64,000 nucleotides of DNA. It comes from Lytechinus pictus (Eukaryota). A program made the translations under genes and the position numbers. Shown here piece after piece: positions 4,030 through 63,998 of this stretch (the stretch's first letter is position 1; each line of letters opens with the position of its first letter). The notes beneath the pieces were generated by a model, which did not search any database, had not been told where the DNA came from, and worked only from the letters and a program-made list of their open reading frames with translations. The stretch is from assembly GCF_037042905.1 (NCBI RefSeq), contig NC_087245.1:9178001-9242000 (forward strand), in the 5' to 3' direction.

Positions 4030-6660
4030 TAACTTCTGCATGAAGCTGTAAGCAGCAACCCATCATACTTGCTTGTTGTAGGAGATTTCAACTACCCCAC
4101 CATCTGTTGGAACCTTTGGTCCTCCCGTTCTCCAGACGAAAGGAAATTTATTGACTGTGTACGTGATTGTTTCTTGCACCAGCACATCACAGAAAGCACT
4201 CGGAGTAGGGATGGGCAGCATCCTAGCACCCTTGATCTACTGATCACAAACAAGGAGCAAATGATCAGTGATTTGTCCTACCTCCCAAATTTAGGGCTAA
4301 GTGACCATGTGTGCTTGCTATTCATGCACTGTAGATCTTTATGCCAATACCTCAACCAGAAAACAAACAGGATATGTACCATAGAGGAGACTATGCAGCT
4401 ATAAACAGAGATATACTAGATGTCGACTGGGAGGAAGAGCTTGAGGAACTGAATGTCTATCAAGCATGGGACCTCTTCTCATCCAAACTTCAGAAAGAAA
4501 TAGACAAAAACATTCCTAAGACAGACTCTAAAATGAGAAGAAAGACAAAGATTTGGATGACAAGAACTGCAATGAGGCAACACAAACGCAAGTGTAGAGC
4601 CTGGAGGTCATACAGAAATAATGGTACCAGGAGAGATTTAGAGAGATCAAAGTGTGAAGCAAAAAAACTTCGGAAAATGCTCAGAAAACTAAGACTAGAC
4701 TTTGAGAAAGATGTTACAAGAAATATTAAGACCAACACAAAAACATTCTGGAATTACGCAAATAGTTCACTTAAGTCTCATAGAAGCTTGGGAGTCTTAA
4801 ATAATGAACAAGGTGTTACTGCCAACACTGACAAACAACGTACCGAGCTCCTCAATAGCTATTTTTGTAGCGTTTTCACTGAAGACAACATCAATCATGT
4901 TCCTGACCTGACAGAAAGACATAATGGAAGTTCTCTGGCTGACATTGACATCACCTCCAGCTCTGTGAAGAATAAACTCAAAATGTTGAGGAGTTCTAAA
5001 TCTGGAGGACCAGATGGATTTCATCCAAGAATACTAAAAGAAACTGCTGACACAATATGTACTCCCCTGACTATCATCTTCAGGAAATCTGTAAGGGAAG
5101 GTGCACTCCCGCAATCATGGAAAGATGCAAACATCACTCCTGTGCATAAGAAGGGAAATCGAAATGCTGTTGAAAATTATCGTCCAATTAAAGTCCAATC
5201 TCGTCTGTTATCGGCAAGATTCTGGAATTTTTTATTCGAGGCATTGTCATTCAACACTTGTGCGAGAATGATATGCTCTGTCATGCTCAGCATGGGTTTC
5301 TTCCTGGCCGGTCATGTGTAACTCAGTTGTTGGAAGACATGGAGCTCTGGACATCATCATTAGACAGTGGACACGAAGTTGACACAATATATCTAGACTT
5401 TCGCAAAGCTTTTGACTCTGTACCTCATGAACGTCTTTTAAGCGGGCTTTTAAGCAAACTCAAAGCATATGGAATATCTGGCAAGCTAGAGGACTGGTTC
5501 CGTGCTTTCCTGACGGGGCGTAGGCAGAGAGTTGCTATCAATGGCCAGGTGTCAAAGTGGAGTAGAGTAAAGAGTGGAATACCGCAGGGAAGTGTCCTCG
5601 GGCCAACATTATTTTTGATTTATATCGATGACCTGCCAGAGATAGTTACAAGTCTAGTCCGAATATACGCAGATGATACCAAGATCTTCAGAGAAATAGT
5701 AACAAATGCTGATTGTGAAATCCTGCAAACTGATCTAGATAACCTTATCAAATGGTCTGAAGAATGGCAGCTTCAGTTCAACATAGCAAAATGTAAATTC
5801 TTACACATTGGGAGAAACAGCCTGCATTACAACTACAGCCTTGATGGAACTGCTCTTGAGGAAGTATCTGAAGAAAGAGACCTAGCTGGGCATTATCGTG
5901 GATTCGGAACTGAAATTCCACACATATGTTGCTTCAGCTGTCATGAAAGCTAGCCGAGTACTTGCAATCATCAAGAGAACCTTCCTCACCAGGGATAGGG
6001 ATACAATTCCAAAACTCTTTAAGGGTCTTGTACGACCAATCCTCGAATATGGGAATGCAGTTTGGCACCCAAGACAGACATGAAAGAGATTGAGAAAGTA
6101 CAAAGAAGAGCAACAAAACTCATACCATCCTTAATTGGCAATGCTAGACTATGGAGACAGACTTCGAGCCCTAAAACTACCATCCCTGCAATACAGAATG
6201 AGAAGAGGTGACATGATCCAGACTTATAAAATAATGCATGGAATCGACTGGCTTGACAAGGATATGTTCTTCTTGTCTATTACTGTTGAGGCAACCCGAG
6301 GTCACCCATTTAAACTCTTCAAGAAAAGAAATAGACTCGGATGTAAGAGCAAATGCCTTCGGAGCCAGAAAAGTGCATGACTGGAACCCGCTACCAAATG
6401 AAGTTGTCTCTGCTCCATCTGTAAACTCCTTCAAAGCCAGGCTTGATAAGTTCTGGAATAGAGAATGGTACAGTCACCCTTGGGAATGATTTGATTTGAC
6501 AAAAATGATTGCAAATGCACCATGTACACTGGACACTGACACTGTCACATATATATGCTTGTGCAAGAAGATTAAGCTTGGACGAAAGCTAGACCTGGAA
6601 ACTTGGCTGCAGCTTTCTGCATTTTTCCAGTACATCCGGTAATAAGGTAATAAGATAAGG
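4030..6660 (+). mobile_element. 5'-truncated CR1-group LINE (APE endonuclease C-terminus + reverse transcriptase), frameshifted
   Basis: VGDFN, LDL and SDH (APE); GPDG, KKG..NYRPI, QHGF, YLDF.KAFDSVPH, GIPQGSVLGP, YADD (RT); split over several frames; short ATAAGG-type 3' tail. Confidence 0.93.
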
Positions 6661-7689
6661 ATTATGATGATCACTAGTCGGAAGGAATGCGTTGTGCATC
6701 ACTGTTTTCCGGGACTGTTTTACTCTGAGAATGGTACCGGTATGTCGCCAGCTACGGCTGAGAACGATACAATTACGCGCGTTCTTCAAAGATTTAATGC
6801 TCACGGGAAAAATTAGAAGTTGACGTTTTTCTACGCTACGGTTGCCGTTCCGATGGTGTATTCAACTAAAATAGAATAATGAAAAGGTAAAAATCACACC
6901 CCATGATTAGATGGTTATACTAAGTTACCGTACGTCTTCAATCTTAAAGTCTGCGTGAGTAATGTCATGAGTCTAACAAACGGAGGAGGCCATCTCTTTT
7001 TGGCGTGTGCAATTTGAATTTGTTATGCACACATTTCTTATAAGGTTGTCACAATTCTGTGTTACGGTACCATTGGGATTGTACAGGAGCTAAATCGCGA
7101 GGTATACATGTAGTAGTATGGTAGTGAGTCCAAAGGACCAAACCTCGCGTGTGTCCATCATGTCCCACTCTACCTCGAGCGATGTTCGTGCAGGCTCCAC
7201 TCACTTGTTCACTGCAACCACCCTGTCTGTAACCCAGGGAGCTGGGGCCTGTTGGCTGTTGCATGTGAAGCGGGGGCTGGTTATAAGATGAAATGGTAAT
7301 AAGCCAATCTCCGCTTACCGACTTTATGCGTGTAGAGATCCGACAGACAATCCTCTAATATAACAAAGTGTTTCAATTATTGCACAATCCCAATGACACA
7401 GAATCACACAAGATTATATCACAAAAAATAACTTGGCTAGCTCAAGCGGTAGGCCCTATTTGGATTTTCTCTGACTTAGTGAAAATGACGGAGAAAAAAG
7501 GGTAGTACGCAAATTAGAAATGATATGCTGTGGAAGATGCAATGGATGAATTTGCATCAAGTGAGATGATGGAATCCACAAAATGTATCAAGTATTTGAC
7601 GACGTTCTCAAAAACACGTGTTTACTAAAGTAGAAAACTTTGAGAAGTGTGTTCAGAAAAGAAAGTAGTAGTTTTCATCCCAAATGTGA

Positions 7690-7918
7690 TGTAGGATGTA
7701 AACAAAGAGAGAGGGGGGAGAGAGGTACCAATTCAGAGAATTTATAGTGAGTCACAGGTGAGTGTGCTGTGTGAGGGTCATTCTTGACCACTTGTTGACA
7801 TATTTATTGCTAAGGAGTGGAAGTAACTGGTATCCAAGGGTAATGTCCTCTCGAAGATGATGAGTAATAGAAGACAAAGTTGAGAAATGAAAAAGGATGA
7901 AATTTGGAAAATACTACA
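7690..7918 (-). repeat. Putative 3' LTR of the Gypsy element
   Basis: Minus strand: polypurine tract AGGAGGGGG at ~7923-7931, then TGTAG...CTACA termini and an internal AATAAA; distal boundary tentative. Confidence 0.6.
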
Positions 7919-8002
7919 TCAGCCCCCTCCTAGATCGTTGAATAAAATGAAACGGTCGATAACAAAGAAAATAGTAATAGTCCAAATGAAGAAAATAATT
8001 TC

Positions 8003-9718
8003 TCAATTAAAATGAAGGACTTGAACAAAGCGCTTTGGAAAATGCACTTTTCGACCTGAACGAGTTTGTCTGATTTCAGGCTCGGTAGATGATGAAGAAG
8101 GAGTGATGGAGGGAGGCGGAGGCTTAGTGGTTGGTGTAGTAGTCACTTGAGAAGGTTTAGGGTTTTCAGGAGTAGATAAGCTAGGTTGAACTGTGGTTGG
8201 AACGGTTGGTGAAATGGGTGGTTCCAAATATGCTGGTTTCAGACGGTCGAGACTGATAGTTTCATGTTTTCCTTTGAGTAGGATGGTGAAAAACTTATCA
8301 GCTCGCTTGATGACTTGATATGGGCCATCATAGGGTGGTTGAAGGGGTTTCTTGACAGCATCATGACGCACAAAGACATGGGTGCATGATGTGAGATCAG
8401 GGTGGACCTGTGGTTTGCGATGCTGAATACGAGTGGGCTGAGGTTTGAGGTTCTCCATTTGTTTTCTCAGTCGATGGATATAGTTGCTAGGGTCCAAATC
8501 ACAATCTTTCTGTTTAGGTGCTACAAACTGACCTGGCAATCTTAAAGTTGTTCCATATACCAGCTCAGCAGCGCAACATCCCAAATCAGATTTGACTGCA
8601 GTTCGAATTCCAAGCATGACGAGAGGGAGAGTTTCAGTCCATCGTGGAGAAGAGGTAGTTTTGAGTGATGCTTTAAGTTGCCGATGAAAGCGCTCAACCA
8701 GTCCATTTGATGCAGGATGATAAGATGTAGTTCGAATTCTAGAGCTACCAAGAAGATGAGTTAGAGCTTGAAAGAGGGAAGATTCGAATTGTCGACCTCT
8801 GTCGGTAGTGATGGTTGAGGGAGCACCGAAACGAGATACCCAGTGTGAAATGAATGCTCGGGCAACTGTCTCAGCTGATATGTCGGGGATAGGCATTGCC
8901 TCAGGCCATCGGGTGAAACGGTCAACACATGTGAGAAGATATGCATTGCCATTTGAAGGAGGTAGTGGTCCCACGAGATCGATATGAATGTGATCGAATC
9001 TAGCATCAGGTGTTGAAAAAGTACCTATCGGTGTCTTGGTGTGACGGTGTACTTTACAACGTTGACACTGTATGCAAGTTTTGGTCCAATTTCGAACATC
9101 TTTGTTAATTCCAGGCCAAACAAATCTGTCTGTGATGAGTTTTTGGGTAGCATTGATGCCAGGGTGAGATAGGTTGTGAAGAGCATCAAATACAACTCGT
9201 CTGAATTTAGATGGGATGTAAGGTCGAGGATTGGTAGTTGAAGTATCGCATAGGATAGTAGAGTCAGAAATAGGAAGAGGTAGAGGTTCGAGTTTGAGCG
9301 AGGTTGAAGTGAGTTGTGGAGACACTTTACATGTACATTGCTGCTTATGTCTAAGACTTAGAAGGGTATTTACATCATATTTAATTCTATTAGACATTAA
9401 GGCTTTTTGACTAAGAAGTCTTTGAGTATTGCCTTGATTAGTTAATGTGTTATTATTGTTGCTCAAAGGACCAGGATTGGGATGTACATCCCCACATTGT
9501 ACTAACTTTATACGAAATGTGGATGTGCATGAAGTTCCATGATAGTATGGAGTTTCTTTTCCTACATATTTGACATACATGTAAGTACAACTAAATGACA
9601 GAGGGCTGAGATACACAGGAATTAGCCCATTGTCAAGTGATTCCTTAGAAGATGTAGCAACATAAAAGGATAGTGAAAACAGTACAATGGTAAGGGTAAG
9701 GCCATGGAAGAAGGCCAT
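8003..9718 (-). CDS. Chimeric ORF: hydrophobic LINE-type leader with 2A-like motif fused to Ty3/Gypsy integrase
   Basis: 571 codons without a stop; GDVHPNPGP at aa 76-84; integrase HHCC (HNLSH...CIQC), D (HIDLVGP), D (TDRGRQF), E (NGLVERFHR) and GPY motif. Confidence 0.85.
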
Positions 9719-10705
9719 TGTAACCAGGTGTAGAGCTGCTGATTTGAATAACAGTCAAAGAGTGGTTTTGACACACACAATGATAAGCATAATAAACATG
9801 GTTCAAGTGTCTGTTGACACTGTACACGACACAAAAATGGTTTCTTACTTAGATGGCTACTCACCCAGTACAACTCAAAAAGTAAAATTGTTAACTGTCA
9901 GATAAATACACAAAGTTAACAATCAAAACTGGTCTACTTTGACCTCAAGTATAAACTTACAAAACTGGTACAACAATATAAGCAAGAAATTAACCCAGTG
10001 CTCAATAAACAAGGAAACTAGTGGAGCAGCTGTTACGCGCACCACCAGCTTCCTTTGCCGATCCTACAGCATTTTTCCATCCATCTGATACAAATATCTC
10101 ATTACCAAGGCAGTACATTAGTTCATGTAATTGACCTCGCATGAGCTTGAGTTTTTGTTTCAAATCTCCACACAACTTTGGTCCGCGAAGTTAGATCACA
10201 CTTTTTCAGAACACAGGGCTTAGATTAATCGATGCCCCTATAACTGGCCGTGATGCCCTTTAAAAAAATGAACAATTCACGGTCAAAAAGGCTGTGCCCT
10301 TTTTTTCAAACTGGCCGATGTGCCCTTTTTTCAAAACCGGTCATGCCCTTTCTCACTGTGAAATTAAACTTTACAAAGTTCTCCCATATTTCACAAGCAA
10401 AAATACAGAAGAGAGAGAGAGAAAAAACAAAGTTAACAACTTCCCTCAATTCAAATTGCAAGCCATTTCCCGCTATTTTCTGTGATCTACACACAAACGC
10501 CAGTCATGGAAAGTTCACTAGCTGCTGCACGTGGCATGTCCTCCTGCCTGTGTGTGGCATGCATTGGTACATGTACTTTGCAAACTCTGAAATCAGAGTG
10601 AACAATCGCACATGATTAACTGTTTTTCCACCAAAATAATCACAAATTCGGCAGGAAATTTATTTTGAATGTATTTGGATTCTCAGATTACTGATTTGGT
10701 GATGT

Positions 10706-11159
10706 AATAGACCAGTTCGTAGTTACTCATGGACAATTTTCGGTCAAATGACCTTTCATTTCTTTCATTATGATAGGCAGATTTCAAAGCAAAATATTAC
10801 GTAAGCTTGCCTTATATAGCAAGATGAAGAAATTGAATAGACCAGGTGACTAGAATAGCACACCAATGAACACTTTATGAAGGTATTTGTTGCATTCCTA
10901 CTTTGAATGCATATCATATCATGTTGCACAATGTACTTGGCAAACTGTGAAAACCAGTCGTTCGTGGACGCGTTGTTGTTTTTTGTGGATGTAAATGAAA
11001 ACCACAATTCAAAAGAATATATGAATAATCAAGACATCAAAGTTGGTGCTTATCTCATTAGATTTTAAACCACCATGTCACTTTAGTACAAATGACCTCC
11101 TCTGATCATGCGTAGAATCTTTTGATCATGCGCAGAAAGGAACTACGAACTGGCTTATT
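10706..11159. mobile_element. MITE with ~19-bp terminal inverted repeats
   Basis: AATAGACCAGTTCGTAGTT ... AACTACGAACTGGCTTATT; superfamily not assigned. Confidence 0.55.
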
Positions 11160-11699
11160 GGAGGAGCTTGTTTTTTAGTTTTCATTACTAGATCGGTCTA
11201 GTTTCACCTTTTGTTTTGAGTCTATTTTGAGTTTTTGAGTGTTATCGGTGCGAACTTGTAATGGGAAGAGAGATGCCTGTGTATGTGTGATGCCCTGATG
11301 TTTCACCTAATTTTTAAGTTTGATAATGTTTCACTTTAAAAAATTTGTATTCATTTTTAAAACATGTTAGTTTTCTAACAATTTTAAGAGTAATATATAA
11401 AAAACTAATATCAGTAAGATTATTGTTAGATAATTACATTTTTTTTGTTTGCTTGAAGTTTGAACTTTTCCCTCTTTAATTTTTTGCTTCTAAAAAGTTA
11501 TGTAGCACCTATATGACCTTGTACAAGAGTAAGTACATTTGACATCTAAAAATACCGTAAAATATTGGCCTTCAATGCCCTTGGAAAAGGATTTTGGCCT
11601 TTGTGCCCTCCAAAATATAAGGTATTTCAAGGCCAAACTGGCCTTGCCCTAAAAGTGACAAAATTTAAGGTCTGATAACAGATTTCCATTACAGCATGC

Positions 11700-12725
11700 A
11701 TTTGCCAATCCAATGCATTTATGGTTGTAGCACGAAGGGAGCAATTTGTGTACAATTGGCTTCATCCAGCATTACGAGATATTGTCTTCAGCTTGTTTCC
11801 GATGGTGTTTACTCCAAGAGGACTGTTAAAGTACCACAAAGATCCATCTAGGAGCTTTTGGTTTGGGCCTTTGCCATAGCCAGGGGCAATTTTGGTTAAG
11901 TTTACTGACAAAGTTCTGGAATGCAGTTACAGGACATGATTTACTCCCTGGAATCTCATACTTGCGGCCACTGATTGACACCTCATCCTGATTTTCTTTG
12001 TGAGAGGGTCTTTCTTCTTAAAGTAAGTCAGGCCACTGTCGACGTCATTCTCGACTGTAAAATCGTGAGGTTTCATTCCACAAATATTTTCCCGACCACG
12101 GTTACAGAAGGTCATGATGTCGACAAAATAGTTTGTAATCCGTATGGTGTCATGTCGAGTTCCTCCGAATTCTGCATCGTTTGCATGTCCGTTGGGCTAA
12201 TCACGGGTTATGTGCTGAACATTACCCTTTCCTTCTTTCTTCAAACTAACCAATATGGCTTTGAACATGCGATTTGACTGAGGAAATTTCACCTTGTCAC
12301 AAATATCTAAGCCGGACTCCTCCAAATAGTGTCGTTGAACTCCATATTTTAGAGTTTGCATAGTCCATTTTTTGTAATTTGTCCCATCTTCTTCTCTGAT
12401 CCCGGTGTAGAACTTACAAAGAAAGGAATCTAGATTAGACAGATCAGATTTAAGGCTCTCCAAATTTGTGTCAGAATACTTGGCAAATCCAATTAATTTC
12501 TCTCTTGCAAATTTTAAGGATCTCTTGGTGTTGTCACTATCCATCTGGCCCAATGGGTCAGCATGTTCTTCGTCCGTGGGGACATGAAACTTATTCGCCA
12601 TTTTGCACGATTATACCAAACGATAGTCCTAGTCTAACGTTAGACCCAATAATCAGCTCGGCAATCCATTTGCCCAACGGGTCAGCATGTTCTTCGTCCG
12701 TGGGGACATGAAACTTATTCGCCAT
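11700..12725 (-). mobile_element. Degenerate Crypton-like tyrosine-recombinase transposon (DUF3504/ZMYM-KCTD1-related domain)
   Basis: NTKRS, LCKFYTGIREEDGTNYK, F..SN.MFKA...LKKEGKG, NRGREN, CPV..F..F.SKL, WY.NSPLG.NTIG, YTNCSLRAT across frameshifts and one stop. Confidence 0.82.
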
Positions 12726-12794
12726 TTTGCACGATTATACCAAACGATAGTCCTAGTCTAACGTTAGACCCAATAATCAGCTCGGCAATCCATT
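12548..12794. repeat. 124-bp tandem duplication
   Basis: 12548-12670 repeated at 12672-12794, near identical. Confidence 0.93.
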
Positions 12795-14590: not shown

Positions 14591-14647
14591 GGGAATGGTC
14601 AGTCTATGCATGGACACCAGTCTTCATTGGATAGCTTCTTCAAAAAG
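14591..14647 (+). CDS. DNA2: DNA2 exon ([22 protein letters not shown]-box-like)
   Basis: ttgtag|...AAG|gtaggg, 57 nt, phase 0-0; in-frame ATG at 14606 could be the start. Confidence 0.7.
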
Positions 14648-17600
14648 GTAGGGAAATGTGCTATTCATGCTTATAGCATTCAATTAATAAATATAATACA
14701 GAAAAAAGCACATGTAATTAGAATTGACTCAGTCTCCTGATGTCTACATGTATTCAATTTAGAGATGTATTTGAGGTGTTGATGTTATCTATTCATATTG
14801 ACTTTTTTTTTTTTTTTTTTTTTTTGGGGGGGGTTAGATTGAAAAAAAATATATAACATCCTTCATCGTCCAGTAGTTCTGATTCTCCCCTTTGAACAAA
14901 GGGTCATAGGTTCAAATCCCAGCCATGCAGAGTGTTACTGTCAATTATCAGTGAGACATTCAACCACATTGTCATGCACTCAACCCAGATAATGAATGGG
15001 TATCTGGCAGGATTCGAACAACTTTATGGGCTAACAGACATGCCAACAGTTCACTTTTTAGAGTATGTGTTCCTCTTTTTATGCCCCCGCAGATGAAGTC
15101 CGGAGGGGGCATTAAGCGTTGCCCCTGTCTGTCACACCAAAATGACACCAAAAGACAGGCTAAGTTCGAATTCAGAATCTGCAGGTCAAAGGTCACAGCT
15201 CATTAAATATGCGAGTTGGTTTCCGCATGAAAACTTAACAAAATATTCAACAGCTTTAAAAAAAATTGGTTGTGTAGGTAGATGACACCAAAAGACAGGC
15301 TAAGTTCGAATTCGGAGTCCGCAAGTCAAAGGTCACAGCTCATATATATGTGAGTTGGTTTCTGCATGATAACTTTGGAAATATTCACCAGATATTAAAC
15401 ATTTTTGGTGTCTGGGTAGATGACACCAAAATACAGTCAGGTCACATCAAATGACCTGACTGTTATATCTTCTGTCAGAGATTATTATGGAAAGGGCAAG
15501 TCTTTAGGTCAAAGGTCTTAATTTGTTCATTATATATATATATATATATGCATATAGAATTCTGCACGATATCAAGTTTATCATATTGAATGAATTTCTG
15601 ATCGCATTAAGCGGGGGCATCTGTGTCCTTTGGACACGTCAAGTTTCTAGTTTGCTATGAATACACCAATACTTTTTGGGTATGATTTTTTTTTTAAATT
15701 CCGATCATGGAGTATGTTTTATACACAGCGCGTGACACTAGTGCCAGTCCGACAGTCCCAGACCGGTAAAAATCACTGTCAGGCCAGTAACTTTTTGCAT
15801 GAAAAGAACAAGTAAATTCTTGCCTTCGAGCACATGTTTAAAAGGGTGAATTATCAAGTTTTCAAGTAGAGTCATTTCACATGTTTTGTCACTGATCTCA
15901 CTACAACAGGCTGGCGATTGTTACGTTGAGACAAATTTTTAAAATATTCTTTTTCTTAAAAAAATACTTTTTTTTCTTTTTAAGAATACTTTTTTGTTGT
16001 AGAAGGTTGGCAGCTCTGGGCTAATGCCAGGGTAACGATTATAATTTATTTGCCTGTGATTTTGAATAAGCAACTACCTAGAAAGCATGCTTAGAATATA
16101 CTGATCATTATTGTTATATTTTCTAGAAATCAGAGCTACCATCCCCTCTTTTTACTCAAGTTATATCGACTTCACAAAAAGGTAAGCGATGTTTACATGG
16201 AGAGGTTTGTGATAAATCCCATTTTCTCAAATTTCTTCAATTTTTATCAATGAATAGCAAAATAATTGGATGTACCTTTTTTCTATAAATTTGTTCTTCT
16301 GTTCTACTTGATAATGGGTCTGTTTTCTTTTTAATTAAAAACTTAAGTTAAAGGCAATCAATGATAGACTGTACATGTAGATTAGTATGATAAATTTGAC
16401 TTCCATGATGGCTGAAATATGAAGAAGAACATTCTTCTTCCTCTTCTTTAACCACCCCCCCCCCCCTTACTGTATTGCTTTTTTTATTCTAGCACTTGCA
16501 GTACCACCTAATCTTTATGATTTAATTTGAATGCAAAATGTAATGGTTTTTATTTGCCTTCGCTTATTCCTTTACTTTAATGCCCTTTTATCAGCCTGCC
16601 ATAAATTACAGTATCTAGGGACTGTTTTTAGGTATTCAAATTGTACCATTTGATTGGCTATAAAGCAACATTGCATGAGATTTTTGTCAATGAAGACAAA
16701 GAGATGAGAAATCAAACTTATTCTATAGATATGTGTTTACATGTTGGTGTGGGGATTATTGAAACAAAAATGTCTTTGTTAGCAAAATAATGATGCAGCG
16801 CATATTTGTTGTACAAAAATGTTGTACAATTTATGGCAACCTTACTCCAATGCAACCCACAACATGTATATTGGTGAGGCAAGATTTTTTCATTGTAGTA
16901 AGATTGAATGGTAATTGGGAATCACTAATTGAAAAAAAAAAAAAAAAAAAATAGGATCATCTGACTCTAAAGAGATTCTATTCTCCAGACTCCTACAAAA
17001 CCTGTACATGTCCTTGGACCTTTGTATCATGTATTTGTGTTTTATACCAAATATATAAATAAATACATCCATGCAATTCAGACAAACCACGGAAGTGGGA
17101 GGTTCCCTGGATGAACTGTATCTTGCCCAGTATGCACTTGTCATGTTTGAGTAAAACACCAACCACTGACCTTGTTTTTTTTTTCTTCCATGTTCATTGA
17201 ATCACTTGAATCTATCCTTCAAAATATTTCAAATTAAATCAAGAAGTATTTTGTTGTAGTTAATCATTTTGTACAAACAATGTGTTACTTTTAAAGCTTT
17301 TGATCTTTTTTTTTATTTCAATCTATGTAAATGGAATTTATTTTTAGTTGAATTGTTGCTTTTCATTCACTTACAAATATTTTAACTGCACCCTTAGAAA
17401 TGTATCATTATCATATTATGCACTTTAAAGACCTTTTACTTCTTGTAGGTTTTAAGAAGCAGAAAGACCCGAAATCCTCTATATGTAAGAAGCCTGCTCC
17501 TATTGCACCTGCCAAGGAATTCAAACGACAGCCTGCTTCATCACTGCCTATAATAGACCCACAAGATGTTCTAGGTGTGTTATGTTTGTAACTGATCAGG

Positions 17601-20600
17601 GAGAGAGAGAGACAACATGTTGATGTTTGGGATAAATATGAAAAGAAAGAATTGATTCCCTAAAGATACTTCATTTTCTCACTCTGCACTGCACTATGCT
17701 CATATGTACTGCATTACACTACACTACATTAGATAGATAGATAGATTAGATAGATAGATAGATAGTTTATTAATAAAAATCAAGACATCATCGCCGCTAA
17801 GGCCAAATTGCGATGTATTTACAGGGTAATAATGACACAAAAAATGTTCAAACAATAAAAAAAATAATTATAAAATCAATAATACGGATAAAGTATGGTA
17901 TTGAAACTACTTGTGTGAAATCCTAGAAAGGAATATTAACTGATAGTAAATTGTTTGTCTGGCAAATGACACGTGTGTATGCCATTGTAGTATTACACTA
18001 CACTACTGTATACAACATTAACCCTAAATAGACTGAGCTATTTTGACACCGAAGAAGACTGGGTGACTGAATCAGCTCCCCCCCCCCCCCTCTTATGATC
18101 TCGGCTGTCGATTGCTACGAAAAATTGGCACAAACGTCACCCATGGCATAATCTACGAAACTATAAGATCTAATTCTGTGAAAATCTCATTAATTAATTA
18201 TGCTGATTTATGCATAAAATCAAAAGTCTGCTCTAATTAACTAAATAATGCCCCTAAAATGTTCATGATTGGTTCACAGACTCTTTATAGGAATCTAATC
18301 AAATATCCTTTTTTTTTAATTAAACATCACATTTATTTTCTTATGTATTTTATTGTTTTCTAAATTTCTCTTGTATTTCCTTTCTTTTGGACTTTTTGTT
18401 TTTATTGTTTTTTTCAATGGAAATTGTTGGGAACTTTAATTTGACCATAAACAAGATGAAATTAATTGATTTTAATCAGTAAAAGGAAAAATAATGATAC
18501 ATTTATGAATTTTGGCTAAAAACGCTATTTGTACACGAATTCACGTTTTTGAGCAATTTTGGGTCTGCATGCACTTACGAAATGTTGCATAATTTTGGAT
18601 CCGCCCCTGGGGGACACGATTTTGGTCTCAAAAGTTGCGCAAGACTTGAAAGTAAAAAGTCAGTGAGCGAGGCGGTCAAAAAAATTGCACGGCGGATTTA
18701 TCGCGAAAAATGTTATGGTTAAACCTCACTACATGTATACTATGCTATAATGCTACAGTGTACACACTATGCTATCTCTTGTCTAGATAAAGTTAACCAC
18801 AACTATTGCTGTTATTTGGGATATTATTGAAGAAAAAAAATGGAGCCAAAACATGCATATTCTTTGCCATTTAAAAGGCTTGTGCAGTATTTTGTTTTTG
18901 TCTCTTGTTTTTTTTTTACTTTTGTGTGTTATTTTTTTTACTTGAATGAGCTCGTCTTATATTGTACATGTGTAAATACCCATTATTGGGTGTGCATGTA
19001 TATGCTTTTTAATAAAGGACAAGTCCACTCCAACAAAAAGTTGATATGAATAAAAAGAGAAAAATCCAACAAGCATAACACTGAAAATTTCATCAAAATC
19101 GGATGTAAAATAAAAAAGTTATGACATTTTAAAGTCTCGCTTAATTTCTCAAAACAGTTATATGCACATCCTGGTCTGTATGCAAATGAGGAGACTGATG
19201 ATGTCATCCACTGACTATTTCTTTTGTATTTTATTATATGAAATATTCTAATTTTCTCCTGATTGCCAAGTGAAACAACGATTAATTCCTCCCTGAACAT
19301 ATGGAATTAGCGTTGTTTAATACGATATGATTCAGTCAAGTTGGTCCGTGTTGTCAAATTTGTAAAAAATTAAATATTGTATAATTCAAACAATAAAAAA
19401 CAAAAGAAATAGTGAGTGAGTGACATCATCGACTATTGCATTTGCCTGTCACTCAGTTGTGCATATCACTGAATTGTGAAAAATAATTGAAACTTTAAAA
19501 TGTCATAACTCTCTTATTTTATGGCGTGGACTTGACCTTTAATCTCTAATGTCCATCTTAATAAAAGAGAAATATCAGACCCATTCAACCCATTATAAAT
19601 ACCGGTACTATCTTGGTTGATTTCCCTTCAATGAATAGGGATGAAAAGCCATAGAAATGTACTGAATTTGTTCAAATATAATGCATTCATTAGGTTTTGC
19701 TTTATCTGTTTTCTCCATTTTGACTTTACTGTTAACAGTTATACCAGCAACCCCAGAATCTGTACAGTCAAGTACAAAAGATTGCTTCCAGTCACCACCT
19801 GCTGTTAACAACCAAGATACAACTGATTCTCCTTTCTCACAAATCATCATTCCAGACACACCAGACAATGTTATTCCAAAGAAGAGGCCATTTACCAGTC
19901 TCCTCAATCACAGTAGGGATATCTCGGGAAGTACCTTCAAAGTAGATGATTTCAGCAGGAAGGACTCCTCAAACAAATCAAAATGTGGAAGAGACATTGA
20001 GAGAATCCCTTTACCTCTTCTCCAAGCCACCAATGCGGAACTGCCAAAGACAAAAGTGAATTTAAAAGGCTCTTTGGTAAAGAATGATAGAAAGATTGAT
20101 CAAAACTGCTCAAAAGGCAAAAAGGAACCAAGTGCTTCTGGAGAAGATAATATGATTGCTATTAGTGAAAGAGATAATAAAACAAAGCCATCTAACAAAC
20201 TGAGCAGGTTGTCAAGAAAAGGCAACAAGTTAGCAAAGGCTAGTAAAGAGGTTTTACCAAAACCAACTACTGGACTAGAAAATGAAGAATGTAAGGTAGA
20301 AGCAGTGGACGACCGATTGGAAGAACTTGAGGATCGTCATGTAAATAGGATTGAGATCAAACCAGCTGTGTGCAGGGTAAGGAACTCCTCAAAGAAGAAT
20401 ACATCAAAGCTGAGTCTATCAAGGAAAGTCCAGAAACAATTGCTGGATACAACTGTCAGAGCTGTCAAGAGATCACCTAGCAGAGGAAACTCCCCATATT
20501 CAAAGCGATTCCAGGATTCTGTATGCACCATCGACGACATGGATCATGACAGAAAAGACAGGGTTAAGAAATCTCTCCTTGAAGAGTATGGAGTTGACAG

Positions 20601-23600
20601 TCATCTTGCCAAAGAAGTGCTACCCTGTCCTCCAAAGGAAGAGCCAGAAGAGTTCATCTCAGTTATTCCAGATTCCTGCCCAACACAAATGGCAAGGGAG
20701 CAAGATGCATTGATCATTCCAGACACCTGCCCTATGGTGGAAGATACACCGGAAAAGAGCATTCCTAAGGTTTCAGGATCTCTGATCTCTGAGACAGTAA
20801 GTTTATCTGTAGAAAGCCCAAGTTTACAAGTTTCATCAACTCAGGAAAAAGAACACAAAGTGCAATATGATTCCTACACTGCCAGTAAAAATGATTTAAC
20901 TTCAGAACAACAGAGTGTTCTGCAGGAGAATATAGAGTGTGGAGTAAATAATGATGATGATGTCAGTTTAGGGGAATCATATTATAAACCTGCTCATTCC
21001 AGTGAAGCTACCAGTACAATGGCAGCAAAGATAAAGATACCCAAGAACCATGTTCAGACAGGACCTATAGATCATCTAGATGCCCATAAAATGGATAAAA
21101 CAGCATCCAAAGCTCTGGAAATAGACATCATGCAAGACAGTTCTGTAGCATTTGATTCCAAGGATTTCAGTACTCCAAATGAAACTCAAAGTGGAAAGAT
21201 TGATCATGGAACTAATATCAGCAGTCCAGGAACAGCTGCCCTCTTAGAAGGACTGGATGACTCATTCCTGGATGGCATCAATTTAGATGAATTGGATAAC
21301 ATGCAAGATGGCAAGGTCAGTGTTTTAACTCCTGGTTCATCAATATCCCATAAAATTGTGTGTTGAATTTTCTTCACAATTTCTTTGATAGACTACACAA
21401 GTTATTTCCATAAATAACAAAGAGCCTTATATAAATATAACATCATAGATTATAATTCAGAGCCTAGCACTGCATGAGAAGAGTGTACAAATATTCAATG
21501 CCAAAATGATTGTAAGGAAATAATTGTTACAATTGAATTGTGGGGGGGGGGTTTCAGTCCCGCCCCCCAGCCGCTCCGCTTCTGCAGCCCCTGAAAGATA
21601 CTTTTTCTTTAACTTCATTTATATCTGATTTACATGTATGTACATAAAAATGTAAATCAATAAATGCTAATTTTAGGCTTCAATGATTAATTGGATGATC
21701 CACTGGTGATACTTGTCTCAAGAGATAGTTTGACAACATTAACATAGAAATAGGTTCATGTCCACTATAATTTATCTTTAATTGATGCCTTCATTTTAAT
21801 TTTCTAGGTTGAAGGAAATGCGATTTCCAATATTGATAAAAAGTTTCGTGAGTTTTCACCATTTAAGATGAAACCTGGAGCAGACAGCAAGCTCAATCAA
21901 CCTCTTGTTGACCTTTGCCGATACGTTGTGACAGGTGTTCAGGACAACATCAAGTAAGGGCAGATGAAATGCAAATATCAGAACTTGTGCAACTAATCAT
22001 AAGGGAAGGAGAGGCAGCCCTTCAAATTTTTGGAAAAAAATAATTGAATGTTTTGGGCATGTCAACTCATATTGAATAATGATAATGTGCCAATTTGCTC
22101 TGACCAAGATTATATTTTTCATATATTTGATTTTGATCTACACAGATGTCTTATGTTGAGAATGAAGACCAGGGCTCTATAACACAAAGGTTTGAGATGA
22201 ATTGCAAATATAAAGGAACCGCACTGATTGGTTCACGGTAATTATATTAAATAGAGTGCACATACAAGGATGATCTTAATTGGTCATTCATATTTAACAA
22301 TTGATTGCAAACCTTTGTGTTGCAGAGCGCAGGTATTAAACTAAAACTAATAATTTATTTTGTAATCACAGGTACATGTACAGAATGACAATAATTCTTC
22401 TCCTTGTTCACTTTTAATGTAAAACAATTGCAATGTTGGGCCTGTAAAATTAGCAGTTAATACTTTCCCAATCTTCTACTTTACTGTACCAGTACATACA
22501 GAGATACGTTGCATTGTCTTTTTTTTTGTGTTATTGTTTGATAGTTAATTTATGTCAAGTGTTTACTTATCATTTTATTAAAACCAGTAATAAGAGGCTG
22601 AGTGTAAGGAGTATGTCAGACCAGAGTGATAAGTTCTGCATCCTCAAGGACACATGGTAAGATTATTGGATGGCTTGATAGAATTTAAACTGCCAACTCG
22701 TTTAAATTGAACTGACAGTTCGAATTTATATACTGAAATGTAGTATCAATCTTGAGATATAGTGACAATAGCTCTTTTGATATTTTTGTTTAAATCTTGG
22801 ATGTTTGTTTTAAAATTGCAGTTTGAATTCCCAGTTGCATGTGGTTTATAATGATGACCACATTGGTAAGATTATGCAAAGGGGAATGTGCACTACTATG
22901 TAATCTTCAATTAGATTACATGTTTGATTACACTACAATACTACATGTACACAGTAGTGCATCATTTTGTCATTGAATGAAAGTCATTACACATGGAAAT
23001 TATCTAGATCCAGTTCATCAGGGAAGGGAAATAGTGTAATGATGTCAATTGTATCCATTTATTGTGACTTGAGCCCCCCCCCCCCCTGCTCACACTTATA
23101 CAGATGTGCATCAATTATGCAAAGCCAAAGAAGCCAAATTATGTCCCACATCACTGCAGTTTAACAGTTCACTTGTGATGACAGTAGAATACCCAAATAT
23201 TCAGATCGAGCAATCCCATTTAAGATGTACTTGTAGGACTCGTTATGCTCTCATGGATTATCGGTTACCAATACTTTGTCAATGGTTATAGCACTTTATG
23301 CTATAAAGAGAATTGCATCGAGTACTCTTGATCAAATAAATATTGTTATTTTCATGAAAAATACTGTTGCAAATTGCAGAACCTGAGTGAGAGTGAAATA
23401 TTGATTGCTGTATATTCTTGCTTGTATCTCAGGCAAGACTCCCTTGTTGAAGAGGGTATGGTGATTGCTATCCATGGGACGTTTAGTGCTGATGGTATAT
23501 GTGAGCTCAACAATCAATCAGGCTATCTTATTATCAACCCTGATCATTTACTCACTGGAACAGCAGTGTCAAACAGCATCAGGTGTATGAGAAGGTGAGT

Positions 23601-32600: not shown

Positions 32601-35600
32601 TACAATAAATGCTCTTTAGGATTAGAAGCTGATGCAATTTTAACTAAGTAGGTTGGCTGAATTTGTTCCTTCTGATTGTTTTATATTCTCCCTCTTTTGT
32701 TCAGATTGCAGGGTTCCCCCACCCAGCTACCTTCATCTGTTCAAGATCTATTCAATGAAAGCATTGAACATTTACAAGACTCACACCTCCAGTATTTTGC
32801 TCACTGGTATCTACTCTGCTGCCTGGAGCTTGAGGCCACAAAGAAGAGGAACAAAAGTAAAAACATCTGGTGCAAGGAGTCTATTGAGAGGTAGGTAATG
32901 TGTTGTGTGTGCTACACATAATACTCAGTATCTATTATTTACCTGGAACCAAAGTAATAAGAACTTGATTGGAGGATACCTATGGTAATGTATCATCAAC
33001 AGATTACAATCCATTATTATCAATGAAAGCAAATACCACATGCAACGAGACACACTGAACTGAACTGAAACATCCCCTGGAAAATCAGACATGCATTGGA
33101 CCGAGGGGCAATTTATAAACCAATGCCATCTGTGTTTATTTTGTAGAGAGAAAGATGGTGAATGTTGGAGTAACATGGAGTTCATGAGCTCAACACCTAG
33201 AGATCAACAGAATGGAGGATTTACACTGGCCTTTAGAAGAAAACAAGGAGTGAAAGGGTAAGTAATATTGTAGTACCTAAGTAGATATTATCAGTACTGT
33301 TGGTAGTGGTGGTAGTAGTAATGATGGTGGTGGTGGCTGCGGCTGTAGCGGCATCAGAGGCTGTAGCAGCAGTAGTGATAGAAGTGGAGTGGTAGAACCA
33401 GCAGCAACTGTACTTTTGTACACATTAGTTGTCTGTGTAATAAGTTTAATGTCATTTAGAATTACTTGCTTTTGACCACTACAATTGTTTATTTTTCAAA
33501 TCAAGTATGCAATCTAATTTATTGGTTGCAAGCCAGAAACGTATTTACATTACAATTCTCCCTATTTTAAAGTATTTTAGTTGATGCCTTTCTGTCTAGT
33601 AAAAACAAATAAATGGTAGTACTCATGGAATTAAAGTAGACACAACATTTAAATCTCAGTCAAATATATTACAATTTGATTTACCACCTTTACAGTGTAA
33701 TCTTTTGTAAAATGTTTCAATTTGATTGGTACTGGTAGAAAAATTAATGCCTTGCTTATTCTTTTTTCCAGATGTTCAGCAGCCAGCTTGGATAAATGCT
33801 TGATGAGAAATGGTGACAGGGTAGTCATTAGCATTGAAGGGAGTAGAAGAGTTGCTATCTGTGTGGGGTTCATTGATACAATTACTAAAACAGATATCAA
33901 GATTAGCTCAGACAGGTGGGTTCATAGATAGATAGATAAATAGATAGATAGATAATTATTTTTTTCTATCAAAGTTCAGCTCATCAATACAATCAGGTTC
34001 AGATTGATTGGTTGGTCAATCAATCGATAGCTAGATACACATATTTAAAAGGTAGAGGATATGAAGATTGATAGATTAGTATCAAGGCGAAATAGATTTT
34101 TGAAAAATAAAAAAAACCATTGGTAAAACAGTAACTATGAATTAACTGAAAATTTGCATGGATGAAAAAGAATGAATCAATTTAATGTTATATGTTTTAA
34201 ATTTTTCAAATTTTGAAAACAACTCATGAAGAAATGAAATGTTTGAGTACTTTGACAAAACATCTAAAACACTTATTTTATACAATCATCAAGGATGCAT
34301 GATTATTGAAGCTATGAATTACTAATGATCTATAGTTTTCACTAATGTGAATGATTTTGTAACTTTGTTTTTCATCAGCCAATTGAAGAAGGATGGCAAA
34401 GAAAGCACTCTTTATCGTATTGACAAGGATGATAGCTACAACAGCATGGCAGCTAGTATGGTCAATCTTACCAAACTCATGAAACCTGAACATACCAAGT
34501 AGGTATCAACTTACATGAAATTTATTAAGGGGAAAATAATCACCCAGTCCTCAAGATTTACATCACAGAAAGTTTTTACTAATTTTGTGGATTGTCAAGT
34601 TGTTTATTTGAAGATATTTTTGAAAATTATGTGCTGTAATGTTATTTATTAGATCTGTTTAATTCAAACAAATTGTACAAATTTTTTTTGTAATTATTAT
34701 TACAGGGTATAATATGTGATATGGGTGATATAAATAATTCGTGGAAATCTAATATTTATATAGATGGTATTTCATTTTCAAGCTTTATAAGGATGTTGAG
34801 CACATGTATTTTATCTTAAAGTTTTGGTATAAAAACATGTTAACTGAGATTTTTTGCCTTAAATATTGTAGCATAACGAGTTATACCTTTAAGATGTATT
34901 TCATAGTTTAATCGTAGAGGGCGATATTTTAGTTGTGATATGCTTTGCGATTATTGGAGAAGTACGTCAGTTCGCTGGGAGCTGCGGTGGCGTGCGGTTG
35001 TAAGATGTAAGCTCCGAATAAATCAAGTTGAACGGTATACTGAATATCTCCCAAGTTGCTTCATTTGCATGATTTAGGGTGAGTGAGCGGGTGATCCGGT
35101 GTATTTCAGAGGAGCGAGAGAGTGTACCACGTTGCACAATATACTTTTGTGAACGAACCTGCCCCAAAAGAGATATAAAAGTGAGGAGAAGCGTGGACCG
35201 GGTTCTGGAGACTGCGAGACGGCAGAACGCTACCCCGACAGAGCTCGGTTACGCCACACTGGTGGCCGCGGTGGGATTGAACAACGTGGTGTTGGAAGCT
35301 CAGACAACTTATATAGGCGCCTGTATTACAGGAAGCGCCACGTATATCGCCTATGAGGAAGGAAGCCTGGAGAGAGGCAAGAAGAGAGCACCTATGCACG
35401 TTGGTGAATAGCACCCGGAGTGTGTGTGTTGGCGACAGCGTGGATAGCGCCGAGGAAGGGGAGCATGGAGAGAGGCAAGAAGAGAGCGCCTATGCACGTT
35501 GGTGAATAGCACCCGGAGTGTGTGTGTTGGCGACAGCGTGGATAGCGCCGAGGAAGGGGAGCCTGGAGAGAGGCAAGAAGAGAGCGCCTATGCACGTTGG

Positions 35601-38600
35601 TGAATAGCACCCGGAGTGTGTGTGTTGGCGACAGCGTGGATAGCGCCGAGGAAGGGAGCCTGGAGAGAGGCAAGAAGAGAGCGCCTACGCACGTTGGTGA
35701 ATAGCGCCCTGGGTGTGTGTGGCGGAGATAGTGCCTACACACGTTGGTAAATACTGGATGTGTGTGGCGGAGATAGTGCCTACACACGTTGGTGAATAGC
35801 GCCCTGGATGTGTGTGGCGGAGATAGTGCCTACACACGTTGGTGAATAGCGCCCTGGGTGTGTGTGGCGGAGATAGTGCCTACACACGTTGGTGAATAGC
35901 GCCCTGGGTGTGTGTGGCGGAGATAGTGCCTACACACGTTGGTGAATAGCGCCCTGGATGTGTGTGGCGGAGATAGTGCCTACACACGTTGGTGAATAGC
36001 GCCCTGGGTGTGTGTGGCGGAGATAGTGCCTACACACGTTGGTGAATAGCGCCTTGGGTGTGTGAGCGGAGTTAGCGCCTATACACATTGGTGAATAGCG
36101 TATTGAGTGTGTGTGGCGGAGGTAGCGCCTACGGAGAGCGCTTGCGACTGAAAAGATAAGGCGCCTTGTATATAGCGCTTGTACACGTTGGTGAATAGCG
36201 CCTTGAGTGTGTGTGGCGGAGATAGCGCCTACACACGTTGGTGAATAGCGCCTTGAGTTTGTGAGGCAGAGATAGTGCCTACACACGTTGGTGAATAGCG
36301 CCCTGGGTGTGTGTGGCGGAGGTAGTGCCTACACACGTTGGTGAATAGCGCACTGGATGTGTGTGGCGGAGATAGTGCCTACACACGTTGGTGAATAGCG
36401 CCCTGGGTGTGTGTGGCGGAGATAGTGCCTACACACGTTGGTGAATAGCGCCCTGGGTGTGTGTGGCGGAGATAGTGCCTACACACGTTGGTGAATGGCG
36501 CCTTGGGTGTGTGTGGCGGAGATAGCGCCTACACACGTTGGTGAATGGCGCCTTGGGTGTGTGTGGCGGAGATAGCGCCTATATACACGTTGGTGAATAG
36601 CGCCTTGAGTGTTGTGGCGGAGATAGCGCCTATACACGTGGGTGAATAGCGCCTATTGAGTCGGTGTGTAGACGACAGCGTGGATAGCGCCTATACATGT
36701 GTATAGCGCCTACGACGAGTGGCTATGAAGAATGGATCTGAAATTCCTTGCAGGATAAGTGCAGCGTGGAGATGGGGATCTCTGAACGTCGAAGAGAAGT
36801 ACTTGTTGGATATGCAGATACTAGCAACAAGGGAACTGGAGCTGTCCTATGTTGGGAAGGAGCAAGTCATATCCTATGCTAGTGGGGTACTGCATTAAGA
36901 AAGCAGAGAAAAAAACTACTATGGGGCTCAAAAGGAGTCATGGGCCATGGTAGTATTTCGGAGCTGCAACAGAACTTCTATGGGCGGAGATCAGGACGGA
37001 TCATCGGGCACTTGGTTGGATCTTTGCAGAGGCAAGGGTGGTTACCGTGGAACTTGACATCAGCAATGAGCAGATACCAACAGAAAGAACCTTCGATCAG
37101 GTAGATCTTGGAAGCAGAGCATCAGTCAGTCGACCGGCCCGATTGGTCAACGGTGGCTTCAAAGTCTAGTGTGGAGAAGTCCTATTGGAGGATGCACAGC
37201 TGGAGATGAAGCAAGACATACTCTTCAGGAAGTAGGAGTGTGACCAAGGTTGGAATGTAACCTGGCATGTGATGTTGTTCTTCAGATAGATAGTTCGAAG
37301 GAATTGCGTTGGATGCACATCCGCTGATTGTTACGACAGGGTAACGCCTTGGCCTCCAAAGAAGTCTTTATAGAGAGAGATCGAGATGATGAAAAGTAGT
37401 TCTAGACATGCGCCTTGAAGAAACCCCCAAGAAGAAATCCTCTAGCACTTAGAAATCCGCAGAATAGATATTGGACATAACTTTCGCTATAACTTTGTGC
37501 CAGAAACAGTAAAAGACTCTGATGCATTTGATTTTTGTATTCAAAATGTTGTTTTATGCCTTGATGTATGCTTTATTTTTTGTTGCTTCCATGTTTTCCC
37601 TTTCCTATTTTCTAACCTTTCTTATGTAATTCTCATCTTGAAATTTTCCTGATCTCAATGCTACTCTCTTTACTCTTTCTATCTATTTCTGTATATAGAT
37701 TACTTTGGTTGTTAATGTAAGAACGGTACTTCCTTTATGTACTATGCCAATGTATATACCTGTATACTTTTAACGATGTCTTAATGTTTTCTATACTTCT
37801 GTTCTTGGGAAGAGCGAGATAACATTTAAAGAAATTCACTTTTATGCTTTGTTGTTAATATACCTGGTCTGAGGACAGCCCAGACTTGGGGAGGGGCTGT
37901 GTAGCATAACGAGTTATACCTTTAAGATGTATTTCATAGTTTAATCGTAGAGGGCGATATTTTAGTTGTGATATGCTTTGCGATTATTGGAGAAGTACGT
38001 CAGTTCGCTGGGAGCTGCGGTGGCGTGCGGTTGTAAGATGTAAGCTCCGAATAAATCAAGTTGAACGGTATACTGAATATCTCCCAAGTTGCTTCATTTG
38101 CATGATTTAGGGTGAGTGAGCGGGTGATCCGGTGTATTTCAGAGGAGCGAGAGAGTGTACCACGTTGCACAATATACTTTTGTGAACGAACCTGCCCCAA
38201 AAGAGATATAAAAGTGAGGAGAAGCGTGGACCGGGTTCTGGAGACTGCGAGACGGCAGAACGCTACCCCGACAGAGCTCGGTTACGCCACAATATCATAT
38301 TTGATTGTTTTTAACTAACTATTTTCAGGTTACAAAACATTGTGATCAATAAACAGCCGCCTACATCTATCAAGAAACCCAACTTGCCTTCTCGAGCCAG
38401 AGGTGAGGTAGCAATAATTATGAAAGACTTGAATGAAGACCAACGTGCTGCTATCAAGGCTGTCCTTCGAAGCCAAGACTATACTCTCATCATTGGCATG
38501 CCTGGCACAGGTTAGAATCTTTATCTCAAAAGATTTTTTTTTTTTAAGATAACTTGTGCGCTGTTTTAATTGTTGTTTGGTCATTGTAGGTAAATACCAT

Positions 38601-63059: not shown

Positions 63060-63998
63060 TTACGACTTTAGCACAGAACGAGGGAGATGATTCAGGTTAC
63101 TATGGATCCCTTTATTTATTCGGCTCGAACGCCGAGGACCATCACATGCATGTGCATCTGGTGACTGTACGACTGACTGGTCACCTGGGTGTGTTGAATC
63201 CCAAACAAAGATCAATGGGAGTTGTTCCTCATTACCAGCATCTTTGGCTTGGACCGTTATTGGGTCTTCGCACTTTTCATGCTGAAGGGAAGAGTCCTCA
63301 AATCCGCAAGGCATTCCATCATCCCTGGGGTCCTTGACGAGGAGTTTTCGATTCACTCTCATCATGCGACCACCCAACAATGGGCGGATTTCATACACGT
63401 CATCTGACATGTTTACCTTGGTAATGACATAGGGGTTGTTGTCAAATTTATCGGCCAGTTTATGCCTTCCGGTGAATGCACACTTTTTTAGGAGGACTCT
63501 AGTGCCAACTTTCAAGGGGTCACTCATTGGCAGTGCATCATGTCTTAGCTTCTCAGTCTGGAGTGTTGAAGAAATATTACTCTTAGCAGCCTCATGCGCC
63601 TGTTGAAGAGATATGGATTGCTCCTTGACATACTCTTCATTCCAGTCTCCATGCGTATTTCCTAGTAGTTGATCAAGAGGTGTGTATGGCTCTCTGCCAT
63701 ACAACAGATGAAAGGGTGAAAAACGTGTCACTTTATGTGGAGTGTAGTTGTAAAGTGACACTAGATGGCCTATAACATCTGGCCACTGTCGTCGCTCTGA
63801 TGAGGGAAGGGATCGGATCATTGCACAGAGAGTTCGATTGAACCTCTCAGTCTGACCGTTCCCTTGAGGGTGATACGGGGTCGTTCTTGATTTAGTGATT
63901 CCATACAACTGGCACAATTCACGTATGATAGCACTCTCAAAGTTTCTCCCCTGATCGGAATGGATCCTCAGGGGAACACCATAGTGTGCAAACCAGTG
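63060..63998 (-). mobile_element. Ty3/Gypsy pol C-terminus (integrase), continues beyond the window
   Basis: Frame is open to the edge: YGVPLRIHSDQGRNFES, TTPYHPQGNGQTERFNRTL, YNYTPH..T.FSPF.LLYGR. Confidence 0.93.

Follow-up and report, generated by a model that had tools for sequence, protein, structure and literature searches.

In the described sea-urchin 2A LINEs (STR-51, -61, -69, -133, -142 and -197_SP; PMC3708506, PMC12338488), the 2A-like motif lies about 40 to 80 aa from the start of the ORF, follows a shared upstream tract (Y..N..STF.I.L..[CAS]GD), has a residue other than E at the E position and is separated from the APE domain by a further tract. The locus described here shares this arrangement up to the point where its LINE part is cut, and STR-133 and STR-142 have a core, GDVHPNPGP, identical to its own. 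Leaders of the same subtype have been found in L2 and Rex1 elements (PMC3708506). In sea-urchin NLRs with N-terminal 2A-like signals (Roulston et al. 2016, PMC4981915), a single peptide of ~26 aa serves as signal and 2A in many host genes, with tested activity; the skipped product is cytosolic and the unskipped product enters the secretory route. Integrase domains outside retroelements are likewise known, from GIN1, GIN2 and CGIN1 (PMC3424704), which are ancient, conserved across species and expressed. No paper on an LTR integrase led by a 2A was found in a literature search that ran mostly without subscription journals. Here, we describe a locus in a 64,000-nt stretch of Lytechinus pictus DNA (the window) at which the front end of a 2A-bearing LINE is joined in frame to the integrase of a Gypsy element.

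The ORF comprises 571 aa without stops on the minus strand (9718-8003 in the ORF listing of the window), as had been proposed in the original prediction. It combines the 5' end of an APE-type LINE with the last 2.05 kb of a Gypsy element. Separate searches of the genome with the two halves located both parents, a LINE paralog on contig C8 and a set of Gypsy copies, so that the predicted joining of a LINE 5' end to a Gypsy 3' end is borne out. The switch between them, anticipated at about 9320, is real and falls exactly at nt 9317, after residue 134. The junction (9316..9318, minus strand) is in frame, with 1 nt common to both parents (A at 9317): the window reads CTCCA/CAACTC, the LINE parent goes on GAAG, and the Gypsy parents show CAAA or CAAG ahead of CAA. 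A splice product is ruled out by the lack of a GT-AG arrangement. Pfam assigned Integrase_H2C2 (residues 168-223, E 2e-18) and rve (241-335, E 1e-12) to the ORF and matched no gag, protease or RT family in it, in agreement with the predicted absence of all three. The position of the cut disregards domain borders, lying mid-tract in the LINE and inside the N-terminal extension in the integrase. AlphaFold modeling without an alignment was uninformative (mean pLDDT 35), and a search with residues 1-170 among proteins of near length gave one match in 836 candidates, an ordinary Gypsy polyprotein aligned on its integrase side.

The LINE contributes ~340 nt of 5' UTR and 134 codons. The probable 5' UTR (9719..10057, minus strand) may hold an internal promoter, and its presumed 5' boundary adjoins a different repeat that starts at 10058. 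Open LINE relatives have 5' regions of 368 and 292 nt, and the UTR seems complete; it includes a 14-codon upstream ORF (9799-9755, minus strand). Residues 1-22 (9653..9718, minus strand) form a hydrophobic, signal-peptide-like N terminus by the Kyte-Doolittle scale. A signal- or TM-like start had been predicted, and the hydrophobic start is present; its best 19-residue mean, however, is a moderate 1.75, so that it resembles a signal h-region rather than a membrane anchor. Past the 2A-like motif, a LINE tract of residues 85-134 (9317..9466, minus strand), 90% identical to the C8 copy, is cut before the APE domain. Within it, YDVNTLL (residues 114-120; 9359-9379, minus strand) is what we take to be a candidate fit to the eIF4E-binding pattern YxxxxL-phi, retained in the chimera. 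The ESM Atlas held no usable match for the leader.

A DNA search with 9330-10100 gave one real paralog among the matches listed, the C8 copy (L002), which is 90% identical over 9616-9314 and extends beyond the point of the join to encode an APE endonuclease (Exo_endo_phos E 5e-5, slightly under the curated threshold). This copy is 41% identical over aa 54-284 to an intact LINE, L029, which starts with a like hydrophobic segment, has the identical core GDVHPNPGP and carries APE and RT domains. The intact LINE ORFs L029, L030 and L035 all begin with a hydrophobic start like that of the window leader, and in L029 and L070 Exo_endo_phos and RVT_1 stand in a single ORF with the leader. The parent family is thus a 2A-bearing APE-type LINE, of which the window copy itself is cut before the APE domain. 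By its motifs, the RT of L070 looks L2-like, which we take as a provisional placement. In an unpolarized comparison of the window leader with the C8 paralog, 4 codons differ synonymously and 7 non-synonymously; the window leader is open, whereas a stop codon and a 15-nt gap interrupt that of the paralog. A MITE-like repeat truncates the paralog (L002:1501-3270, L047, L050) on the 5' side; at L002:2216/2217 the paralog gives way to the linker-RT region of a LINE from another family, a region that is itself tandemly duplicated.

The leader belongs to a large family. A protein search of the genome with it gave at least 131 matches (150 scored of 209 candidates), and the motif is present in 19/19 of the top other genomic loci fetched, with H at the E position in 11, Q in 4, D in 3, S in 1 and E in none. 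A profile of 10 leaders matched 1,024 public representatives, the best 150 of which show N (45), H (28), E (22), S (19), Q (16), D (11), K (1) or A (1) at this position and lack the pattern in 7 cases, counts that are biased by a profile built from non-E leaders. Among public relatives, 108 of 131 have a hydrophobic 12-mer upstream of the motif, and 2 of 133 have one downstream. It follows that a signal-like start with an H-type motif is the normal front end of the window LINE's group. Pfam found APE and/or RT in 28 of the best 150 public relatives, Dam in 1, integrase in none and no family at all in 121; these proteins are mostly fragments (17/150 reach at least 420 aa), which makes them a weak test for integrase partners. 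Across the large LINE group as a whole (L028-L046; P0002-P0151), the single ORF opens with a signal-like hydrophobic segment and a conserved Y.G..I.YY.N..STF tract, followed by a 2A-like motif in which the E position is free to be N, H, E, S, Q or D. In one public protein, P0046 (587 aa), the canonical 2A-like pattern (GDVExNPGP) occurs five times, and Dam methyltransferase is matched weakly, below the Pfam cut-off. A literature search run mostly without subscription journals (including Luke et al. 2013, PMC3894237) found no paper on signal peptides ahead of LINE 2As, and the words signal, hydrophobic and membrane are absent from the main text of Odon et al. (PMC3708506).

A 2A-like motif had been predicted at nt 9467-9493, and GDVHPNPGP indeed stands there (residues 76-84, nt 9493-9467). 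With its conserved upstream tract, the 2A/StopGo-like element spans residues 51-84 (9467..9568, minus strand; core DVHPNPG/P at 9490-9467), and residues Y58, Y59, F68, G76, D77, N81, P82, G83 and P84 are invariant in 10/10 aligned leaders. A chance match is ruled out, as this is a conserved motif of the parent LINE family. The window core, DVHPNPGP, departs from the classic D(V/I)ExNPGP in having H for E, and the upstream tract ends in CG before D, as in L-rich motifs, with one leucine among the six residues preceding D. That H arose by decay of a once canonical 2A is rejected in view of the residues at this position in the public relatives and in the 19 genomic relatives fetched, none of the latter having E. 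Reports on H at this position differ. Crack-15_BF, with H in place of E, was reported to have very low activity, and non-conservative changes were called inactive (Odon et al. 2013, PMC3708506). In viruses, H is over-represented at the E position and listed as a rare functional variant; a viral variant was >95% active in its own context, and DVHPNPGP occurs 6 times in the dataset of that study (2026 PNAS study, PMC12846837). Among S. purpuratus elements, STR-51, -61, -69 and -197 are listed as active, three of them with D, Q or N for E, while STR-133 and -142, with the H core, are listed as untested (Rao et al. 2025, PMC12338488 supplement). The upstream tract of the four active elements is of the same subtype as that of the window leader. 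Since H is a rare functional variant in viruses, failure to fit the classic consensus does not exclude activity, and skipping is plausible because sea-urchin LINE 2As of the same subtype are reported active. The reading of H as inactive, taken from Crack-15_BF, is weakened by the viral H variant and the active STR relatives. The caution in the original prediction that H for E may weaken skipping therefore agrees with Crack-15_BF but not with the viral variant, and H is a family trait here, not decay. We would put real skipping at the window motif at about even odds.

Residues 135-571 (8003..9316, minus strand) are the coding part of a Gypsy integrase, with H181/H185/C215/C218, a D-35-E triad (D247, D306, E342) and GPY at 465, and this part can be aligned with integrase chains of foamy virus and Ty3 in the PDB. 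The cut lies 28 codons past the RNase H end motif ADALSR, so that the N-terminal extension has lost up to 28 residues, depending on the true protease site; of the predicted intact integrase, the HHCC, D-D-E and GPY motifs are all present but the N-terminal extension is shortened. A polypurine tract and an LTR were correctly expected to follow. The polypurine tract region (7919..7931, minus strand) reads AGGAGGGGG, with the purine tract proper at 7931-7923, then 4 nt, then the LTR start. By alignment to family copies, the 3' LTR is complete at 653 nt (7266..7918, minus strand), with TG...CA ends. Its end is as in other copies, without poly(A), which indicates that the 3' end was made by integrase and not by LINE machinery. 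Searched against the whole 64-kb window for a 5' partner, the LTR matched only itself. As to Gypsy membership, an integrase of the kind that follows RT-RNase H, with HHCC, D-D35-E and GPY, was found, and two LTRs, gag, protease and RT were not.

The Gypsy family counts at least 21 copies in the assembly, including the window copy (three probes each). The 19 copies fetched have 93-98% DNA identity to the window; all align from 9317/9316, 18 of them through to about 7266, and in 19/19 the sequence upstream of the junction point is the RNase H end of pol, never a LINE leader. Divergence over the integrase part is 0.31-4.35%, the nearest copy differing at 4 of 1310 nt, and this part is open in 14/19 other copies. 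The family is young, and with so many open copies and so near a neighbor, an open integrase is the default and no sign of selection. LTR-to-LTR distances fall into two size classes, 4309-4315 nt in 9/13 pairs and 4884-4886 nt in 4/13, the form shorter by about 570 nt outnumbering the long one.

The joined form itself occurs once. A junction pattern with up to 2 mismatches allowed had 1 match in the whole assembly (812 Mb, 368 contigs), and 0/19 fetched Gypsy copies carry the LINE leader; the copies sharing this exact junction, counted as the original prediction proposed, thus give no spread of the joined form. A single occurrence raises the question of whether the assembly is in error, through a chimeric read or a mis-join linking a LINE fragment to a Gypsy copy from elsewhere. 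Among the pieces listed for 4 of 14 runs, whose contigs were compared over 5950-12500, none bridges nt 9317, a weak argument for such an error. Yet three changes are private to the Gypsy half, which is therefore not a duplicate of another assembled copy, and the single nucleotide shared at the junction offers no overlap to mis-join on. Run X1, the 1 of 14 runs that holds more than half (87%) of the words of 9200-10140, also has contigs that match the leader (9486-10258) and the far flank (6857-7199) without a difference, at a depth of 2-3; these do not span the join, and X1 may be the source sample of the assembly. None of the runs listed as sharing these words is on record as RNA, which speaks neither for nor against expression. 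We accordingly regard an assembly error as very unlikely. In run X12, which has another organism label, contigs cover 9318-9854 and 9834-10038 as related sequence, with 66 letters beyond 9318 in the LINE contig that are unlike the window. Gypsy contigs of X12, X7 and X2 stop matching the window at 9316-9317 and then run on. Because these contigs diverge at the junction, both parents exist unjoined in other samples. X7, with the same organism label and study as X1, and X2 have no cover at 9454-10110, a lack that is uninformative.

The locus has its two halves, one junction in a single copy and a young Gypsy half, with neither a 5' LTR nor a LINE remainder. We infer an unselected deletion between neighboring elements, with the in-frame join an accident, and give this reading a probability of roughly 0.7. 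A full-length young Gypsy copy would have integrated downstream of a 5'-complete APE-type LINE in the same direction. A later deletion, repaired by end joining at 1 nt of microhomology, would then have removed the rest of the LINE, the intervening DNA and the Gypsy 5' LTR, gag, protease, RT and RNase H, and the join would have fallen in frame by chance. Sister copies, whose LTRs are spaced by 4313 or 4885 nt, put the Gypsy loss at 2.9-3.5 kb or more; LINE relatives, at 1,000-1,180 open codons, suggest that about 3 kb of LINE went as well. A neutral leader of 402 nt stays stop-free with a probability of 0.39-0.68 at 5-2% divergence, indels ignored. Insertion of the Gypsy element inside the window LINE, with the LINE remainder downstream, was rejected after tblastn with two parts of an intact relative came back empty in the flank.

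The join could instead have been made during retrotransposition, either by a switch of the Gypsy RT onto LINE RNA or DNA or by one-ended integration of a truncated Gypsy cDNA, in which the CA of the LTR is the proper end and the opposite end became attached within the LINE as target DNA was lost, an event that would be no less accidental. That the C8 paralog has likewise lost its 3' part and now adjoins a different LINE (L002:2216/2217) suggests that RNA of this LINE subfamily gets joined to other retroelements, and a template jump accounts for the 1-nt overlap as well as end joining does. However, a capture event in the course of Gypsy reverse transcription should leave an upstream 5' LTR, and none is present in the window; had only one end integrated into the LINE, LINE sequence should follow the LTR, and none was found; and a copy primed in the LINE manner would terminate at R with poly(A) rather than in a full LTR. 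The flank on the distal side of the LTR (7265-6654) had no long match elsewhere (best 40 of 652 candidates scored). An origin in retrotransposition is therefore possible but unlikely, and deletion between neighbors remains the preferred account.

What the locus might make is a separate matter from how it arose. If the LINE promoter fires, the hydrophobic start would take the ribosome to the ER. Skipping between G83 and P84 would then yield a 488-aa cytosolic protein (51 LINE and 437 Gypsy residues); with no skipping, the whole fusion would enter the secretory route and have no access to DNA. This product behavior is modeled on that described in PMC4981915 and PMC12846837. By analogy, the locus could yield a little cytosolic integrase by skipping. 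Lacking RT and gag and having a single LTR, it is unable to move by itself. Should there be any effect in trans on its own Gypsy family, interference would be more likely than help.

A stronger proposal is that this is a young gene under selection, in which a LINE promoter, a signal-like peptide and a skip motif were moved onto a Gypsy integrase as a ready expression cassette that delivers free integrase. Its product might be a dominant-negative brake on its own active family, through mixed multimers or binding of LTR ends, or a helper in trans, with skipping setting the dose. The catalytic and zinc-binding residues are intact, the leader is open behind an apparently whole 5' UTR, and relatives of the motif that share its upstream tract appear as active in a published list (PMC12338488). 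Precedents exist for domesticated integrases in GIN1, GIN2 and CGIN1 (PMC3424704) and for signal-2A leaders on host proteins (PMC4981915). All 3/3 changes private to the window integrase are synonymous, at sites fully matched by none of the 20 other copies found, and private changes in the 19 other copies comprise 29 synonymous and 49 non-synonymous ones. The chance of 3/3 synonymous changes is p of about 0.04-0.05 in a post hoc test, a weak hint of selection; the three changes may also have been inherited from an active source copy absent from the assembly. On the other side, the junction is single-copy and very young, no integrase stands behind the leader in 150 public relatives or in the near-length protein search, the 14-codon upstream ORF lies in the UTR and the N-terminal extension of the integrase is shortened. 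The stand-alone, skip-released integrase driven by a LINE promoter that the original prediction envisaged is thus possible but unsupported, given a young, single-copy junction and 0/150 relatives with an integrase, and we consider a young gene under selection the least probable of the readings weighed here.

Other features of the window were recorded alongside the chimera. At 14592-21955 (plus strand), a probable host gene has exons that by eye lie at 14592-14648, 16128-16182, 17451-17575 and 21810-21955, with a large exon within a 561-aa ORF (19681-21366) for which Pfam gave only a sub-threshold DUF2712 match. Its first exon (14592-14648) resembles what we presume to be a PIP-box pattern. A 134-aa ORF at 12197-12794 (minus strand), with a sub-threshold QRICH1 match, overlaps a 124-nt tandem duplication and may be a transposon remnant. 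A broken LINE remnant of another family lies on the strand opposite to the chimera at 4341-5953 (plus strand; RVT_1 E 3e-24). At 34867-38199, two identical copies of at least 300 nt stand 3033 nt apart, with 98-nt and 50-nt tandem arrays between them; this may be a young non-autonomous element bounded by LTRs. A 253-aa ORF at 63060-63821 (minus strand) looks by eye like the C-terminal half of another Gypsy-type integrase.

As a deletion scar, the chimera matters little. It does illustrate that a single deletion is enough to bring an entire LINE front end (UTR, signal-like start and 2A-like motif) into frame with an unrelated protein, and capture of such a front end is a plausible route to 2A-led host genes. 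Were the locus fixed, expressed and capable of skipping, translational recoding rather than protease cleavage would be what sets a retroelement integrase free; were it a newborn gene, it would be a snapshot of signal-2A leaders reaching unrelated proteins, as on sea-urchin NLRs. The broader lead, and one of more interest than the chimera, is the leader family. With more than 1,000 representatives, a signal-like start and a freely varying E position, it opens the purpose of 2A in LINEs to direct test.

Set against the known systems, the locus resembles each in part. Compared with the sea-urchin 2A LINEs, its ORF is cut 50 residues past the motif and goes on as a Gypsy integrase, without APE or RT. 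Its likeness to the 3' end of Ty3/Gypsy pol extends to all integrase motifs, the PPT, the LTR and the 93-98% DNA identity to 19 copies; unlike a Ty3/Gypsy element, however, it has no 5' LTR, gag, protease, RT or RNase H, and the N terminus of its integrase comes from a foreign leader and not from the element's protease. If expressed, the chimera would follow the same dual-targeting logic as the sea-urchin NLRs, but its signal-like segment and motif are about 55 residues apart, and it is a single locus. Like GIN1, GIN2 and CGIN1, it has an integrase domain outside a retroelement, fused, as in CGIN1, to foreign sequence; in contrast to those genes, it is nearly identical to active copies and retains its PPT and LTR. 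The joined form is therefore neither a LINE nor a complete Gypsy element nor, on present evidence, a domesticated gene, although each of its halves belongs to a known family.
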